Assembly: GCA_047601545.1 (NCBI GenBank)
Contig: JASGIZ010000002.1
Coordinates: 1,838,656 to 1,902,655 of the forward strand
Origin: Agriterribacter sp.
Lineage (GTDB): Bacteria; Bacteroidota; Bacteroidia; Chitinophagales; Chitinophagaceae
Length of the DNA: 64,000 nt
Direction: 5' to 3'
Part shown: positions 34,816 to 56,968 of the stretch, piece after piece
Numbering within the stretch: the first letter of the stretch is position 1
How the letters are laid out: every line of letters starts with the position of its first letter
Position numbers and translations under genes: made by a program
The notes under the pieces: model-generated
Database searches by the model: none
Seen by the model: only the letters and a program-made list of their open reading frames with translations
Told to the model about the DNA's origin: nothing

Positions 34816-35008
34816 AGCCTATCCCTCCTCCTCCCCTTTCCAAAGGAAAGGGAGCGGTGCTGTATCTCTTTAATAAACGCTATATCTTCCATTTCAACTA
34901 TAGAAATTCTATTCTGCAACGTTCAACAGGGTTTTGTTTTTCAGCATCTTCGAAAGGCTGGCCGCTGTGCTTAGGTCTCCTTCCCTTTGGGAAGGCCGGG
35001 ATGGGCTT
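34816..35008. repeat. Inverted doublet of REP-like units
   Basis: Left: C-rich tail plus CTCCCCTTTCC-AAA-GGAAAGGGAG hairpin. Right: CCTTCCC-TTT-GGGAAGG hairpin plus G-rich tail GCCGGGATGGGCT. Confidence 0.75.
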
Positions 35009-47383: not shown

Positions 47384-48472
47384 TTATAATACTTTTTTCA
47401 ATAGCTCACAGTATAATTGTATGCCCTGTTCTATTTCCTCCACAAAAATAAATTCATCCGCGGTATGGCTCCTGGCAGAATCGCCGGGGCCTATTTTAAG
47501 AGAAGTAAACGGGATAAGCGCTTTATCGGAAGTGGTTGGTGAGCCGTAATAAGTTCTTCCCAAATCAAGACCGGCTTTTACTATGGGATGATCGGGTGAT
47601 ATGGAAGAAGAACGCATTCTTAAACTCCTCGGTTGCGCATTACAGTTAGTATTGGCGTTAATAACATCAAGTATTTCTTCAAAAGTATATAATTCATTTA
47701 CTCTGATATCAACCACAAAAGAACAATGAGAGGGAACAACATTATGCGCTTTGTTTTCTGTGTTGATAACGGTAACGCTCATTTTAACCGGGCCCAGCAG
47801 GTCAGATACTTTGGGAAATGCAAATGAGCTGAACCACTGAATATCTTTTATGGCTTTATAAATAGCGTTCTCTCCTTCGTTGCGTGCGGCATGTCCGGCT
47901 TTACCGGTTGCGGTGCAATCAAGTACAAGCAATCCTTTTTCCGCAACTGCCATCTGCATTTGCGTGGGCTCGCCTACAATAGCAAAAGCCCAGTTTCTTT
48001 CCGAAGGATTAAACGCCGGTGTTTGAAATAATAATTCAACACCATCTTTTCCTGATATTTCTTCTTCAGCACTCGCTGCAAATACAATGTTATATGCAAG
48101 GTCAGGCTCATCGTAGAAATAAAGAAATGTTGCGGCCAGCGATACAAGACATCCGCCTGCATCATTACTCCCTAATCCGTATAACCTGCCATCTTTTTCA
48201 ATAGGCGTAAAAGGATCAAGCGTATAGCCTTTGTTAGGCTTTACTGTATCGTGGTGAGAGTTGAGTAGAATGGTGGGTTTGCCTTCATCAAAAAATTTAT
48301 TGGAGGCGTATACATTATTGCCAATGCGGAAATGCGGTATACCCTTTTTAGCAAAGAACAGGCACAATACACCCGCTGTTTGATCTTCTTCCTTACTGAA
48401 TGAAGGTATAGCGATCAATGCTTTCAGCAACTCAATGGCATCGGCTGTTAGTATAGCAAGGTCTTTATTCAT
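47384..48472 (-). CDS. argE: M20 family deacylase (ArgE-like; acyl-citrulline/ornithine deacylase)
   Basis: LNSHHDTV, GSNDAGG, AEEEISG, VGEPT, GHAA, RSHTADE; in arg cluster. Confidence 0.85.
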   Translation of the reverse strand: MNKDLAILTADAIELLKALIAIPSFSKEEDQTAGVLCLFFAKKGIPHFRIGNNVYASNKFFDEGKPTILLNSHHDTVKPNKGYTLDPFTPIEKDGRLYGLGSNDAGGCLVSLAATFLYFYDEPDLAYNIVFAASAEEEISGKDGVELLFQTPAFNPSERNWAFAIVGEPTQMQMAVAEKGLLVLDCTATGKAGHAARNEGENAIYKAIKDIQWFSSFAFPKVSDLLGPVKMSVTVINTENKAHNVVPSHCSFVVDIRVNELYTFEEILDVINANTNCNAQPRSLRMRSSSISPDHPIVKAGLDLGRTYYGSPTTSDKALIPFTSLKIGPGDSARSHTADEFIFVEEIEQGIQLYCELLKKVL

Positions 48473-49739
48473 TTACGATAGTTGTGCCGGCAGTGCCATT
48501 CATTAAAGAATATAGCACTTCAGCTTTGCCTATAATTACTTTTTTTACCCCACTGTTTAACGCGGCAAATGCGTTATCAAGTTTCGGTATCATACCGGCA
48601 AAAATTTTTCGTTCATCTTTCAGTTGTGCATAATACGCCGGGTTGATCTTACTGATAACGGTTTCATCATTATCCGCATCAAGCAGTACGCCGCTTTTTT
48701 CAAACGAATAGATCAGTGAAACATCATAATGTTTTGATAATGCTTTCGCGGTTTCCTGCGCAATGGTATCTGCATTGGTATTAAGCAATTGCCCGTTTTT
48801 ATCATGCGTGATGGGCGCTAATACTATGGTTGTTTTTTGTTGCAGTAATTGCTGAAGAAAATCAGCATTCACAGCATCCACATCGCCTGCAAAGCCATAG
48901 TCAATATTGTTTTTGCTGATGCGTTTGTGCGCCAGTATAGCATTACCGTCAGCGCCGCTTAGCCCGATAGCATTGCAGCCATTTGCCTGCAATTGCGCTA
49001 CAATATTTTTATTAATGTACCCGGCATACACCATTGTTACGATCTTTAGTGTCTCTGCGTCTGTAATCCTCCGGCCATCTACCATTTGCTGCTCAACGCC
49101 CATTTTTTCGGCAAGGCGGGTGGCGAGTTTGCCGCCGCCATGTACAAGTACAAATCCTCTATCCCCTGAAGGGGGATTTGTAAGTCCATTATTTTCTGCA
49201 GCAGCAAGTTGGGCAAATGATTGAAGGAAAGCCGATAGTTTTGCTTCGTCATTAATAATATTTCCACCAATCTTTACAACAAAAAGAGCTGGTTTTTCTT
49301 TTTTTGCCTGCTCACTTTTAATAGCGTCTATAGTTTTTGAAATAGTTGCCAATGTGGTTCCTAAATTTTGGATTATGTATTCGTTCTTGAATCTTATTAC
49401 ATGTAGTCCTAAACTTCTTAAATGTTCTTCCCTGATCTTGTCCTTCATTTTTACCTGCTCATCTTCATGTATTCCGCCATCAAGTTCTATAACAAGTTTA
49501 AGTGAATGACAATAGAAATCTGCAATATAGATAGCAATCGGGTGTTGTCTTCTGAATTTTACTTTCCATTCATTGATATGGATGTTTCTCCAAAGTAATT
49601 CTTCAGATGGAGTCATCCTGTTTCTTAATGCTTTTGCTCTTTCAAATATGAGGCTGTTCGCGCCATAAAACATGTTTTGTTTTTCGTTTTCATCAGTTAG
49701 CGGCGAATAAAATTGCTTATTTGCAAATTGTGTATTCAT
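48465..49739 (-). CDS. argB: DUF559 (Vsr-like very-short-patch endonuclease) fused in frame to acetylglutamate kinase
   Basis: Residues about 23-140: AKALRNRMTPSEELLW, KFRRQHPI, IADFYC, LVIELDGGIH, VIRFKNE. Then VVKIGGNII, LVHGGGK, LLNTNADTIA, GMIPKL. Confidence 0.9.
   Translation of the reverse strand: MNTQFANKQFYSPLTDENEKQNMFYGANSLIFERAKALRNRMTPSEELLWRNIHINEWKVKFRRQHPIAIYIADFYCHSLKLVIELDGGIHEDEQVKMKDKIREEHLRSLGLHVIRFKNEYIIQNLGTTLATISKTIDAIKSEQAKKEKPALFVVKIGGNIINDEAKLSAFLQSFAQLAAAENNGLTNPPSGDRGFVLVHGGGKLATRLAEKMGVEQQMVDGRRITDAETLKIVTMVYAGYINKNIVAQLQANGCNAIGLSGADGNAILAHKRISKNNIDYGFAGDVDAVNADFLQQLLQQKTTIVLAPITHDKNGQLLNTNADTIAQETAKALSKHYDVSLIYSFEKSGVLLDADNDETVISKINPAYYAQLKDERKIFAGMIPKLDNAFAALNSGVKKVIIGKAEVLYSLMNGTAGTTIVNE
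49155..49179. repeat. REP-like palindrome inside the argB reading frame
   Basis: CCTCT-ATCCCCTGAAGGGGGATT; encodes NPPSGDRG in an inserted loop. Confidence 0.7.
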
Positions 49740-49782
49740 ATTAGTTATTTTAACTGGTTAGCTAAATGTAAGAAAGGTGTAT

Positions 49783-49808
49783 CCATCCCCCTTCAGGGGT
49801 TAGGGGCT
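49783..49808. repeat. REP-like palindrome overlapping argF' stop
   Basis: CATCCCCCTTCAGGGGTTAGGGGCT. Confidence 0.75.
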
Positions 49809-50768
49809 GAGAATTTCAGAGAGTATAGTTTGTGCAGCCCAAACCCTGTTTGATGCTTGTTGTGTTATAATACTGTTGTTTCCATCAAGTATTTCATCAC
49901 TCAACTCCACATTTCTTCTCACAGGCAGGCAATGCATAACCTTTGCATTATTCGTTAATTTTAGTTTCTCATTCGTCAGCATCCACTCCGGATCGTTGCA
50001 ATATATTTTGCCGTAATCATTATATGTGCTCCAGTTTTTTACGTACACAAAATCCGCGTCTTTCAACGCTTCTTCCTGGTTGTGGGTGATCGTTGCTCCC
50101 CTTGTAAATTGTTCGTCCAGCTCATAATCTTCAGGATGGGTTATTACAAAATCTGCTTCGCCCCAAGCGTTTACCCATTGCGAAAAGCTGTTGGCAACGC
50201 ATTGTGGCAATGCCTTTACATGCGGAGCCCATGTGAGTACGATTTTGGGTTTATGGTTTGTGGTTTGTAGTTTGCGGTTTTGCAGAACTTCAGTTATGGT
50301 AATGATATCTGTAAAGCTTTGTAAAGGATGCAATGTTGCACTTTCAAGACTTACCACCGGTATGCCTGAATATTTAATAAACTGCTTTATATACAGCTCA
50401 CTGTAATCGTCTTCCCGGTTTTGCAAAGAAGGAAAGGTGCGTATACAGAGTATATCAAAATACTTTCCCATAATGGGCGCGGCATCCTTTACATGCTCCA
50501 CTTTATTGCCGCTCATGATGGCTTCTTCCTCAAACTCCAATGCCCAGCCTTCGCTGCCTACATTAAATACTATTGGTTCCATGCCCAGGTTCTGCGCCGC
50601 TATCTGTGTGCTTAAACGGGTGCGCATACTCGGGTTTAGGAATAATAAGCCGATACGTTTATTAGCGCCAAGCGCTTTATCCTTAAACGGATTGGCTTTA
50701 TACTCCAACGCTTTTTTTACAAAAGCATTGATATCGCTAACATCATGGGCCGAAATAAACTGTTTCAA
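49800..50768 (-). CDS. argF: N-acyl-ornithine carbamoyltransferase (ArgF'; succinyl or acetyl)
   Basis: SMRT instead of STRT, HPLQ, TWAPH, YVKNWS, HCLPVRR; TTG start. Confidence 0.9.
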   Translation of the reverse strand: MKQFISAHDVSDINAFVKKALEYKANPFKDKALGANKRIGLLFLNPSMRTRLSTQIAAQNLGMEPIVFNVGSEGWALEFEEEAIMSGNKVEHVKDAAPIMGKYFDILCIRTFPSLQNREDDYSELYIKQFIKYSGIPVVSLESATLHPLQSFTDIITITEVLQNRKLQTTNHKPKIVLTWAPHVKALPQCVANSFSQWVNAWGEADFVITHPEDYELDEQFTRGATITHNQEEALKDADFVYVKNWSTYNDYGKIYCNDPEWMLTNEKLKLTNNAKVMHCLPVRRNVELSDEILDGNNSIITQQASNRVWAAQTILSEILSP

Positions 50769-50782
50769 TGCGCTTTTTTTTA

Positions 50783-50869
50783 AAGGTGTAAGGTTTGGGG
50801 TGTAAGGTGTAGGGTGCAGGGTTTAAGGCCTTATACCCTAAACCTTATACCCTTTACCTTTCACACCTT
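50783..50869. repeat. Hairpin of 7-mer (RGGTGTA-like) units between argD and argF'
   Basis: AAGGTGT AAGGTTT GGGGTGT AAGGTGT AGGGTGC AGGGTTT ... TTATACCC TAAACC TTATACCC TTTACC TTTCACACC. Confidence 0.75.
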
Positions 50870-52030
50870 TTCTTCCAGTACTCCAATCTCTTCTTTCAGT
50901 ACTCCAATCTCTTCTTTCAATGCCTCAATAAAATCTTCAGCATCTCTTCTTTTCAATGCAAGAGAAGGCAGTAACCGGATAACATTCGGTTTCGCTTCCC
51001 CGGTAAATATTTTTTGATTAGTTAACAGGTTTTTCTTGAGATTTTTTAAGTCTTCCGGCACATCAAATCCGATCATCAGGCCTCTTCCTCTTACATTTTG
51101 TATCTGTGGTATTTCGTTCAATGCTCCTTTCAGGTATTTACCAACCATCACCGCATTGCCTAATAATTTTTCTGATTCCAATACTTCCAGTACTGCAATA
51201 GCCGCGGCACACGCAAGATGATTACCCCCGAAGGTAGTACCTAACTGAAAATGCTTTGGTTTGATATACGGCGCTATAATAATTCCTGCCACAGGAAAGC
51301 CGTTGCCCATACCTTTTGCCATCGTATATATATCAGCTTTAACACCCGCAAAATCATGACTGAAAAATTTGCCTGTTCTGCCATAGCCGCACTGCACGCT
51401 GTCTGCTATATATACCGCACCGTATTTATCGCAAAGACTCCTGATCTTTTTCAGGAAATCTTCGCTGGCTACATTAATGCCGCCAACGCCCTGTATGCCT
51501 TCAATAATTACAGAAGAAACCTTGTCACCATTTTTTGCAAAATAATCTTCCAGCGCCTGCTCATCATTAAAAGGGAGAAAAACCACATTATCAGTTTCAT
51601 TAACCGGGGCAATGTAATTTTTGTTGTCTGTGGCAGATACTGCTAAAGATGTTCTGCCATGAAAAGCTTTACTGAACGCAATCACTTTTTTTCTTCCGTT
51701 ATGGAAAGAAGCAAGCTTTAGCGCGTTCTCATTTGCTTCGGCGCCGCTGTTGCATAAAAACAACTGGTAATCTTCTTTGCCTGATAATTTGCCAAGTTTC
51801 CCTGCCAGTTCTTCCTGCAAAGGAATTTTTATGGAATTGCTGTAAAATGCAATTTTCTTTAACTGATCTTCTATCCGCTGCACCCAGTGCGGGTGTGTAT
51901 GGCCGATAGATATTACTGCATGACCACCATACAGGTCAAGATATTGTTCCCCTTTATCATCCCACACATAAGAGCCTTTTGCTTTTACAATGGCGATATT
52001 GTTAATTGGATAAACGTCGAATAAGTTCAT
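50861..52030 (-). CDS. argD: Acetylornithine aminotransferase (class III PLP)
   Basis: YLDLYGGHAV, NSGAEANE, FHGRT, ADSVQCGYGRTG, MAKGMGNG, TTFGGN. Confidence 0.93.
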   Translation of the reverse strand: MNLFDVYPINNIAIVKAKGSYVWDDKGEQYLDLYGGHAVISIGHTHPHWVQRIEDQLKKIAFYSNSIKIPLQEELAGKLGKLSGKEDYQLFLCNSGAEANENALKLASFHNGRKKVIAFSKAFHGRTSLAVSATDNKNYIAPVNETDNVVFLPFNDEQALEDYFAKNGDKVSSVIIEGIQGVGGINVASEDFLKKIRSLCDKYGAVYIADSVQCGYGRTGKFFSHDFAGVKADIYTMAKGMGNGFPVAGIIIAPYIKPKHFQLGTTFGGNHLACAAAIAVLEVLESEKLLGNAVMVGKYLKGALNEIPQIQNVRGRGLMIGFDVPEDLKNLKKNLLTNQKIFTGEAKPNVIRLLPSLALKRRDAEDFIEALKEEIGVLKEEIGVLEEKV

Positions 52031-52163: not shown

Positions 52164-53153
52164 TTAAAACCCCGCCGCCTTCAACCTCAACCCTGCTGTT
52201 TCCTCCAATCCAAACATCAGGTTCATATTCTGTACTGCCTGGCCGCTTGCACCTTTCAATAAATTATCAGCTATGGAATGTACTACCAGCTTGCTGCCTA
52301 CTTTTTCTAACTGAATAATTGCTTTGTTGGTATTTACCACCTGCTTTAGAAATATAGGCTGATCGCTTACAAACGTGAAAGCTGCATTTTTATAAAAATC
52401 TTTGTATAACGTGTTAAGCTCTTCGCTGCTCAAATTGCAATGCACGGTAGAGCTGATAAAAATGCCTCTTGTAAAATCACCACGCCAGGGCACAAAATTC
52501 AAATCAATCGTTCCTTTGGGTTGCAATTGCAATAATGATTCGCCTATCTCGCCAAGATGCTGATGCGTTAAAGTTTTATATGCCTGTATATTATTGGCGC
52601 GCCAGCTGAAATGCGAAGTAGCAGAAAGGCTTTGCCCTGCACCGGTGCTGCCTGTAATACCTGTGGTATATATATCTTCCAGCAATCCTGCCTTTGCCAA
52701 AGGCAATAACCCTAATTGTATGGTTGTGGCAAAGCAGCCGGGGTTGGCAATATTGTTTGCTTTTTTTATTTCTTCTTTATTCAATTCAGGTAAGCCGTAT
52801 ACAAACTTACGGTTACCTGTAACCGATTGTTTGCTCAGCCGGAAATCATTGGCAATGTCGATGATCTTTATATTGTCAGCAATGATATTTCCCTCAAGAA
52901 TTTTTTTTGATTCGCCATGACCGAGGCAAAGAAATACAACATCAACGCTACCGCCTAATGCAGAAAGATCGTCAGAGAAAACCAGGTCCGTATCTCCCAG
53001 TAAATCCTGGTGAATAGCCGCAACAGGTTTGCCCGCATTGCTGCGGCTGTTGATAAAAACAATTTCGGCAGAGGGATGATTAATGAGCAGCCTTATCAAT
53101 TCACCGCCCGTATATCCTGCTCCGCCTATTATTCCAACTTTAATTTTTTGCAT
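52164..53153 (-). CDS. argC: N-acetyl-gamma-glutamyl-phosphate reductase
   Basis: GGAGYTGGEL, IANPGCFAT, STGAG, DNLLKGASGQAVQNMN. Confidence 0.96.
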   Translation of the reverse strand: MQKIKVGIIGGAGYTGGELIRLLINHPSAEIVFINSRSNAGKPVAAIHQDLLGDTDLVFSDDLSALGGSVDVVFLCLGHGESKKILEGNIIADNIKIIDIANDFRLSKQSVTGNRKFVYGLPELNKEEIKKANNIANPGCFATTIQLGLLPLAKAGLLEDIYTTGITGSTGAGQSLSATSHFSWRANNIQAYKTLTHQHLGEIGESLLQLQPKGTIDLNFVPWRGDFTRGIFISSTVHCNLSSEELNTLYKDFYKNAAFTFVSDQPIFLKQVVNTNKAIIQLEKVGSKLVVHSIADNLLKGASGQAVQNMNLMFGLEETAGLRLKAAGF

Positions 53154-56679: not shown

Positions 56680-56968
56680 ACTCCAGCCCTCTCCCTGCCT
56701 ACCGGCAGCTACCCTGTATACATATCTTTACTTATTCAGGCATCTCCCTCACCCCAGGCCCCTCTCCGCGCGGCGGAGAGGGGTGTCCAAATTCAAATCA
56801 GGTTGATAAAATAGAGAGAGGGAGGTTGAAGATCTAAAAGTGAGATGAATATTTAAACGTGCTGTTTGGATATATTTTATAGCTGATGTGGTAGCGATAT
56901 TGTCTGGCTTTGTATTACAGTACCGCTCCCTCGCCATTGCATGGAGAGGGAGAAGGAGGGCGAGGGTT
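56680..56968. repeat. Cluster of REP-like units: truncated unit, then inverted doublet 56745-56968
   Basis: CCCCTCTCCGC-GCG-GCGGAGAGGGG and CTCCCTC...GAGGGAG plus AAGGAGGGCGAGGG. Confidence 0.7.

Follow-up and report, generated by a model that had tools for sequence, protein, structure and literature searches.

In the genome of Agriterribacter sp. (6.03 Mb), the argB gene of an arg operon is preceded, within the same open reading frame (ORF), by a sequence for a DUF559 nuclease domain, and this sequence lies between inverted hairpin repeats, one of which is encoded within ArgB. Comparisons with related genomes indicate that the block is a real cassette, mobile on evolutionary time, and we consider it probable that it represents a homing-like, site-specific, read-through DUF559 nuclease cassette colonising the junction between argF' and argB in the family Chitinophagaceae. 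Coordinates refer to the window, the whole 64,000-nt stretch of contig JASGIZ010000002.1 that was analysed; G000 denotes this genome, other G numbers denote the genomes of relatives, L numbers compared loci and P numbers compared proteins.

A DUF559 nuclease domain in frame with ArgB

In the ORF list of the window, the minus-strand operon has the gene order argC-argD-argF'-argB-argE. As originally predicted, DUF559 and ArgB follow each other in one continuous ORF of 424 codons, which contains no stop and matches both Pfam domains. Given the lack of a stop codon, the nuclease would constitute the N-terminal domain of ArgB. The DUF559 match (PF04480) scored 101.2 bits, against a Pfam gathering score of 20.6 (E = 3.8e-29), and this part of the ORF also matched the solved DUF559 protein PDB 3HRL (E = 4.7e-16). 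The FRRQH motif and residues D74, E85, D87 and H91 (D..ExDG..H core) are intact and were invariant across 32 fusions. The AA_kinase match (PF00696; residues 152-404, E = 1.4e-36) spans profile positions 2-233 of 234, that is, the full domain, and the VKIGG and VHGGGK motifs of ArgB are both present, as in an N-acetylglutamate kinase of an arg operon. Apart from DUF559 and AA_kinase, a Pfam search of the fusion ORF returned just two weakly matching nuclease families, with no Hint domain, no transposase domain and no HUH Y1 transposase. No intron was evident at the locus, for which no RNA-family search was made.

Inverted hairpin ends, one of them translated

Two 22-nt arms (49785-49806 and 49156-49177) form an inverted repeat with 91% complementarity. 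The window contains two occurrences of their 13-nt core, CCCCTGAAGGGGG (0.02 expected), and the core was not found beyond these two sites in the 6.03-Mb genome. The coding-strand sequence of the left arm, CCCC-TAA-CCCC-TGAA-GGGGGAT, comprises a tail, a TAA spacer and the hairpin CCCC-TGAA-GGGG. The spacer (49800-49802) is the stop codon of argF', which agrees with the claim that a palindrome overlaps this stop, and the last two codons of argF' with their stop (SP*) come from the hairpin end (...SEILSP*, versus ...SEILKTK* in G003, the closest relative). The same left-end architecture recurs in 24 other cassette loci.

The right arm (ATCCCCC-TTCA-GGGG-ATA-GAGG on the coding strand) is located directly before FVLVHGGGK, about 37-40 codons into the ArgB part, where it encodes residues N188-G195 (NPPSGDRG). 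This is the second, inverted palindrome that had been proposed to add a loop to ArgB. At the same loop, G003 has SFARITLSNQLVLVHGGG and is net 12 residues shorter, and no such hairpin was present in argB of 96 plain ArgB loci from Bacteroidota (0/96). The alignment of argB from relatives with and without DUF559 thus indicates that the loop insert is derived rather than ancestral. Comparison of filled and empty sites showed no direct repeat flanking the inverted repeats. The arms had initially been taken for repetitive extragenic palindromic (REP) sequences. The palindromes are present, but they are the inverted ends of the cassette itself, and REP-type dispersal of the exact hairpin was rejected, the 13-mer being confined to the two sites and a loose pattern yielding only 5 hits in the genome.

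An AlphaFold2 model of the fusion, computed on the alignment, had a mean pLDDT (predicted local distance difference test) of 82.6, with both DUF559 (residues 29-146) and ArgB folded and the last helix of DUF559 (126-146) continuing into strand beta1 of ArgB (151-157). The insert between alphaA and beta2 (181-193) was disordered, and pLDDT dropped below 50 for residues 185-191, as it did for residues 1-24. The hairpin is therefore predicted to be tolerated as a disordered Pro/Gly loop on the ArgB surface.

Empty, intact and decayed sites within the genus

Approximately 18 genomes of the genus carry an empty site, at which ArgB starts with M[DK]KVFVVKIGG. In the six empty-site genomes nearest to G000 (G003, G013, G018, G012, G010 and G011), the argF' stop overlaps the argB start codon (TAATG), and in seven others a short argF'-argB spacer takes the place of the overlap. 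Intact cassettes were found in two genomes, G000 and G015; the G015 fusion (423 aa) is 87% identical and forms the same continuous ORF. Five further genomes (G007, G006, G009, G020 and G017) harbour decayed cassettes. In G007, the 5' two-thirds of DUF559 are gone, both ends are kept and a new ATG is found 16 codons ahead of ArgB, and in the other four only DUF559 tails and the ends remain. The ArgB frame stays open in all empty, intact and decayed genomes. Homing endonuclease genes follow a cycle of invasion, fixation, decay and loss, and by analogy the pattern in the genus is the one expected from such a cycle. The empty site of G019 was also considered as an excision footprint (left tail, hairpin and right tail, with the ATG derived from GGGGATGGGGG); this candidate was dropped, the resemblance being weak because G008 and G002 have the same spacer without hairpin features.

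Uncoupled histories of the cassette and argB

Between the two ends, the DNA of G000 is 88% identical to G015 and 89% to G007, a comparison that does not apply to G003. In the argB body (49110-48511), the corresponding values are 76% and 79%, and identity to the empty-site G003 reaches 98.8%; at the 3' end of argF' they are 79%, 81% and 91%, respectively. The switch in identity falls within tens of nucleotides of each end. At the left end, informative sites turn from empty-like to filled-like, and between 49195 and 49070 they revert to empty-like. Downstream of the switch-back, 51/51 informative sites carry the empty-site allele, and in the argB 5' segment 12 agree with the cassette-bearing alleles and 3 with the empty-site allele.

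Nei-Gojobori estimates for G000 and G015 gave a synonymous divergence (dS) of 0.60 and an omega (ratio of nonsynonymous to synonymous divergence) of 0.09 for DUF559, and a dS of about 3, i.e., saturated, for ArgB. The median omega of DUF559, 0.13, equals that of ArgB, and values of about 0.1 indicate that the nuclease is under purifying selection. Among the 115 fusions compared, the pairwise identities of DUF559 and of the ArgB body were uncorrelated (Spearman 0.08), although the similarity-based choice of the 120 proteins narrows the range behind this correlation, which counts against our interpretation; DUF559 was slightly more conserved than ArgB (mean identity 75% versus 72%). Taken together, these comparisons indicate that the history of the cassette is uncoupled from that of ArgB. 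The proposal that a selfish nuclease-palindrome element entered the arg operon without breaking it is upheld by these uncoupled histories and by the series of empty, intact and decayed sites.

G000 and G003 share tracts of 100% identity at 48630-49110 and 51300-51830, amid sequence of about 90% identity, which points to recent recombination between two species as defined in GTDB. The tract ending at the right hairpin was considered as proof of recent insertion, a use weakened by the mosaicism elsewhere.

A widespread cassette family at one site

A protein search recovered at least 120 clusters combining PF04480 and PF00696 (386-447 aa), mostly annotated as 'acetylglutamate kinase' and originating from Chitinophagaceae, e.g., Lacibacter, Flavisolibacter and Puia; the sample of 120 proteins was chosen by similarity to the query. 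The frame was open in all 115 fusions compared, with linkers of variable length, and most of them lacked the native ArgB methionine (GDGG-K...), which was retained in a minority (GDGG-M...). In an even sample of 401 Chitinophagaceae genomes from 151 genera, 314 encoded ArgB, and 17 of these (~5%), representing at least 16 genera, carried an intact full-length fusion. Fusion-bearing genomes usually have congeners without a fusion, so that the distribution is patchy within genera. A maximum likelihood tree of 126 distinct ArgB bodies required at least 18 changes of cassette state, versus 24-30 with shuffled labels. The locus thus belongs to a cassette family that is both widespread and site-specific, rather than being an isolated local case.

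Displacement and local spread of the right end

In the usual fusion, the right hairpin abuts ArgB (...SPPLGDGGK-xLYVIKIGG). In a minority, the native methionine comes next (GDGGMEKLY...), which places the original insertion point immediately upstream of the argB ATG. Approximately 30% of the fusions also have a hairpin peptide in the loop between alphaA and beta2, in all three reading frames (PPSGDGG, PLQGMG and HPFRGRG). Locus L027 has the junction hairpin alone, L026 combines a decaying junction hairpin with a loop hairpin perfectly inverse to its left end over 23 nt, and a Lacibacter-like group (L024, L030 and L114) as well as the genus studied here have the loop hairpin alone; the position of the junction hairpin in most relatives corresponds to residues 138-148 of the G000 fusion, where this lineage has none. 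Since L026 is an intermediate form, a two-step origin, as envisaged in the original prediction, is supported, and a junction sequence common to junction-type and loop-type alleles in the genus, GAAAAACCAxCTCTTTTTGT, argues for one origin. In addition, residues 13-21 appear to be a decayed extra hairpin, the intact counterparts of which in other fusions read FPLGDGGKK or NPPSGDRGN.

Both ends in this genus read GCCCCTAACCCCTGAAGGGGGAT and differ from the family consensus, GCCCCCATCCCCTrAAGGGGGGy, by three substitutions, each of which is mirrored. Locus L111 has a private, perfect 23-nt pair of ends and L119 a private 24-nt pair. These observations suggest that the two ends evolve together, the convincing cases being only three lineage-private pairs.

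Of 28 fused loci, 11 had right-end hairpins within ArgB, compared with none of the 96 plain loci (Fisher 1.3e-8), hairpin densities per kb being 0.74 in argB, 0.07 in argF' and 0.16 in argE, and all 14 hairpins in the argB bodies of 24 distinct fused loci had the right-end orientation; phylogenetic non-independence inflates these statistics. The sites or frames differ, which implies at least six independent hairpin insertions. Tandem arrays of 2-5 hairpin peptides (..PLGDGG..) occur at the DUF559/ArgB junction of L031, L124, P0091, P0098, P0110 and P0112 and suggest local amplification of the right end.

Related cassettes and hairpins elsewhere in the genome

A tblastn search of the genome revealed four further copies of DUF559, including in-frame copies in other housekeeping genes. 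Two separate in-frame cassettes are located in leuS (C2:2553820-2555295), one before the editing domain and the other before the MPGYAGSSWY motif, and a third splits the metH activation domain (PF02965; C2:1677763-1678107); all three have translated inverted ends of the hairpin-plus-tail type. The fourth copy is a stand-alone intergenic gene (C1:1840883-1841167); the hairpins on its two sides, CCCCCGCTGGCGGGGG and CCCCCGCCAGCGGGGG, are perfect inversions of each other.

Within an RHS-repeat protein, the argB hairpin subtype occurs in frame as two solo copies, CCCCTTCAGGGGATGGGGG and ...ACGGGGG (C1:1405836 and C1:1406002), which read SPSGDGG and PPLQGTGA, both in the right-end orientation relative to the gene. 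The in-frame ArgB loop and these solo copies bear out the suggestion that the repeat became protein sequence, as with Rickettsia palindromic elements. The genome also contains about 40 copies of a longer related unit, CCCCTCTCC-loop-GGAGAGGGG-nn-GGGGGTGAGG. At 34816-35008, two hairpin-plus-tail units without cargo form an inverted doublet that is similar to REPINs (REP doublets) or miniature inverted-repeat transposable elements and has ends resembling those of the metH cassette.

Organisation of the locus

The features of the locus are listed in Table 1. Directly after argE, at the point where synteny with G003 stops, the plus strand encodes a PD-(D/E)XK_3 protein (PF13366; 46934-47350); the arg operons of relatives are flanked by 23S_rRNA_IVP (PF05635) genes instead. 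The 3' end of argD contains a tandem 21-nt duplication (50867-50908), so that EEIGVLK is encoded twice, and the argD-argF' spacer (50782-50858) includes a 26-nt inverted repeat of the GGTGTAAGG type, 85% complementary and with a 21-nt loop.

Table 1. Features of the arg operon, the DUF559-ArgB fusion and a related repeat in the window
Feature	Position	Strand	Evidence or remark
argC	52164-53153	minus	
argD	50861-52030	minus	
argF', ornithine carbamoyltransferase (OTCase) of the N-succinyl/acetyl-ornithine carbamoyltransferase type	49800-50768	minus	Pfam OTCace_N and OTCace
Left end (left terminal inverted repeat, TIR-L), coding strand CCCCTAACCCCTGAAGGGGGAT	49785-49806	minus	inverted repeat
AT-rich leader, 45 nt, from left end to ATG of fusion ORF	49740-49784	minus	conserved in G015 and G007
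DUF559-ArgB fusion ORF, 424 aa	48465-49739	minus	no internal stop
Decayed extra hairpin, SPLTDENEK, residues 13-21	49677-49703	minus	alignment
DUF559, Vsr-like PD-(D/E)XK nuclease domain, residues 33-137	49329-49643	minus	Pfam PF04480, PDB 3HRL
Tail helix and linker, residues 138-148 (...DAIKSEQAKKE)	49296-49328	minus	alignment, structure model
argB 5' segment, residues 149-187 (beta1 KIGG motif, alphaA, start of loop insert)	49179-49295	minus	inside the inverted-repeat pair
Right end (TIR-R), coding strand ATCCCCCTTCAGGGGATAGAGG	49156-49177	minus	encodes (N)PPSGDRG, ArgB alphaA-beta2 loop
ArgB body, residues 196-424, FVLVHGGGK to stop	48465-49155	minus	host-type sequence, Pfam AA_kinase
argE-type M20 deacylase	47384-48472	minus	8-nt overlap with argB stop
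Copy of the ~40-member hairpin-plus-tail family, CCCCTCTCCGCCGCGCGGAGAGGGGCCTGGGGTGAGGG	56743-56788	minus	

Mechanism and alternative explanations

The cassette behaves like a homing gene in that it occupies one constant site, occurs patchily, is transferred between lineages independently of argB and decays after fixation. In its usual order, it consists of the left hairpin end, a short leader, the ATG, DUF559 and the right hairpin end (SPPLGDGGK), followed by argB, with the left end supplying the tail and the stop of argF'. The Vsr-like nuclease would cut or nick empty alleles or hairpin ends, and repair would then copy the block between the two ends. We infer from the sequences that the nuclease drives mobility, that the ends have a role in it and that the 47-kDa fusion is the working ArgB. 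In the lineage of G000, the junction hairpin has been lost and the left end is partnered by a right-end hairpin copy 37 codons into argB; with this partner inside argB, the block bounded by the inverted repeats carries the 5' end of argB. More tentatively, DUF559 cassettes could form a distinct 'spliceless' homing class, in which mobility-active ends serve as Pro/Gly linkers, the right end re-seeds downstream, locally and in one orientation, and a copying step keeps the ends identical. If so, a mobile block could grow into host coding sequence, here the first 37 argB codons, and the element would bring its own replacement for the 5' end of its target gene.

Several points weigh against a homing-like mechanism. 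We are aware of no DUF559 cassette for which a cleavage activity, a recognition site or a target duplication has been described, and terminal inverted repeats are, to our knowledge, absent from classical homing endonuclease genes. The sharp switch in identity at the right end may simply reflect recombination tracts stopping at non-homology; given that G000 and G003 are mosaic elsewhere, a tract ending there is by itself no proof of insertion. The block itself is mosaic, since its captured argB segment agrees with the empty-site G003 over the initial 28 nt. The idea that the base in the hairpin loop (TAAA/TGAA) covaries strictly from one end to the other was rejected because of mismatches in L029, L031 and L109, and the 23-nt match score, at 19-22 for nearly all pairs of ends, discriminates poorly between partners. 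Translation of the 47-kDa fusion is deduced from the open frame alone.

Furthermore, hairpins and cargo-less doublets exist without the nuclease, so DUF559 could be a passenger. Under this explanation, which we regard as unlikely, REP/REPIN-like hairpins would be the mobile agents, moved by another enzyme or by general recombination, DUF559 would be cargo with, for example, a function in Vsr-like mismatch repair or defence, and the cassette would pass between argB alleles only through ordinary homologous recombination of the flanking arg genes. It is consistent with the translated solo hairpins of the RHS gene, which have no DUF559 nearby, the ~40 dispersed copies of the related hairpin-plus-tail family, the cargo-less doublet in the window and the frequent homologous exchange evident from the G000/G003 mosaicism. 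However, the same site is occupied in at least 16 genera and yet the history of the cassette is uncoupled from that of argB; purifying selection on the nuclease is strong without an obvious benefit to the host from an ArgB appendage; the isolated nuclease decays in five genomes of the genus, in which ArgB is intact; and the enrichment of right-end hairpins is specific to the region downstream of the nuclease gene and limited to a single orientation.

Co-option of DUF559 as a domain of ArgB, with a part in regulation or oligomerisation or a moonlighting role on DNA, would imply vertical inheritance with occasional loss and hairpins that are unrelated insertions. The fusion is widespread, DUF559 is conserved to the same extent as ArgB, and the loss of the native ArgB start in most fusions would make the fusion obligatory. 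Nevertheless, we consider such domestication improbable, because only ~5% of the family genomes carry the fusion, patchily within genera, the ArgB tree requires at least 18 state changes, and the histories of DUF559 and ArgB are uncorrelated. Moreover, G003 has a 98.8% identical argB body and no cassette, five relatives in the genus keep ArgB while DUF559 decays, and the same type of cassette resides within leuS and metH. Finally, the continuous frame could stem from an error of sequencing or assembly, or an internal start could yield separate DUF559 and ArgB proteins, for which an in-frame TTG (L130) and internal ATGs within DUF559 might be suited. Both are highly improbable: the frame is open in the independent assembly of G015 and in no fewer than 115 database fusions whose linkers differ in length, the 18 codons from L130 to the first ArgB residues contain no in-frame ATG, GTG or TTG, and the new ATG of G007 arose only after the DUF559 start was lost.

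Significance and comparison with known systems

Surveys of nuclease and methyltransferase families have placed VSR, DUF559 and DUF2726 in one clade that also includes 1cw0 and 3hrl as well as 3r3p, an intron homing endonuclease (Steczkiewicz et al. 2012, PMC3424549), and have recorded DUF559 fused to SPOUT methyltransferases (Tkaczuk et al. 2007). Our literature search yielded no publication dealing with DUF559-ArgB or with DUF559 cassettes inserted in frame; the surveys of 2007 and 2012 treat DUF559 only as a domain that is fused to or grouped with others, and an element of this kind thus appears to be undescribed in print. What the present locus adds is the displacement of the right end, the capture of host sequence and, within one genus, a clean comparison of sites that are empty, intact or decayed, in which dS values support transfer. 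If the homing-like interpretation is correct, selfish nuclease genes can inhabit essential genes through read-through translation, a third way beside the intron and the intein. The locus would make a good test case, with a defined empty site in the 98.8%-identical G003, intact, decayed and empty alleles within one genus, and a function selectable through arginine prototrophy. In practical terms, hundreds of 'acetylglutamate kinase' annotations conceal an N-terminal nuclease domain, and many Bacteroidota proteins contain Pro/Gly peptides of the PPLGDGG kind that derive from hairpin repeats.

The closest parallel is provided by homing genes of the Vsr-like/EDxHD type, to which I-Bth0305I (PDB 3r3p) belongs. 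In both cases, a Vsr-like PD-(D/E)XK nuclease is found at one conserved site of a housekeeping gene, with a patchy distribution, a history uncoupled from that of the host gene and intact, decayed and empty sites in close relatives. In contrast to these genes, the argB cassette has no intron, intein or stop of its own, its frame continuing directly into that of the host protein; its ends are hairpins that form an inverted repeat, and its nuclease role is deduced from sequence. With inteins that carry homing endonucleases, it shares a selfish nuclease in frame with an essential host protein, but it lacks a Hint or splicing domain, presumably remains part of the mature protein and, at argB, is attached to the N-terminus instead of interrupting the host protein.

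The combination of REPs or REPINs with the REP-associated tyrosine transposase RAYT (the REPtron) is similar in that a single nuclease-type gene lies between inverted palindromic repeats, relatives of the repeat are scattered over the genome, singly or in doublets, and the ends co-vary within a lineage. The enzyme of the cassette, however, is DUF559 rather than an HUH Y1 transposase, the gene and its repeats are inside coding frames, and the argB hairpin subtype has only two further copies in the genome. Rickettsia palindromic elements offer a functional likeness without sequence relationship: there too, a short palindrome is in frame in a protein gene and tolerated as a surface loop, although the repeat family and the host phylum are unrelated, whereas the argB repeat is the end of a nuclease cassette and is confined to cassette-bearing argB genes.

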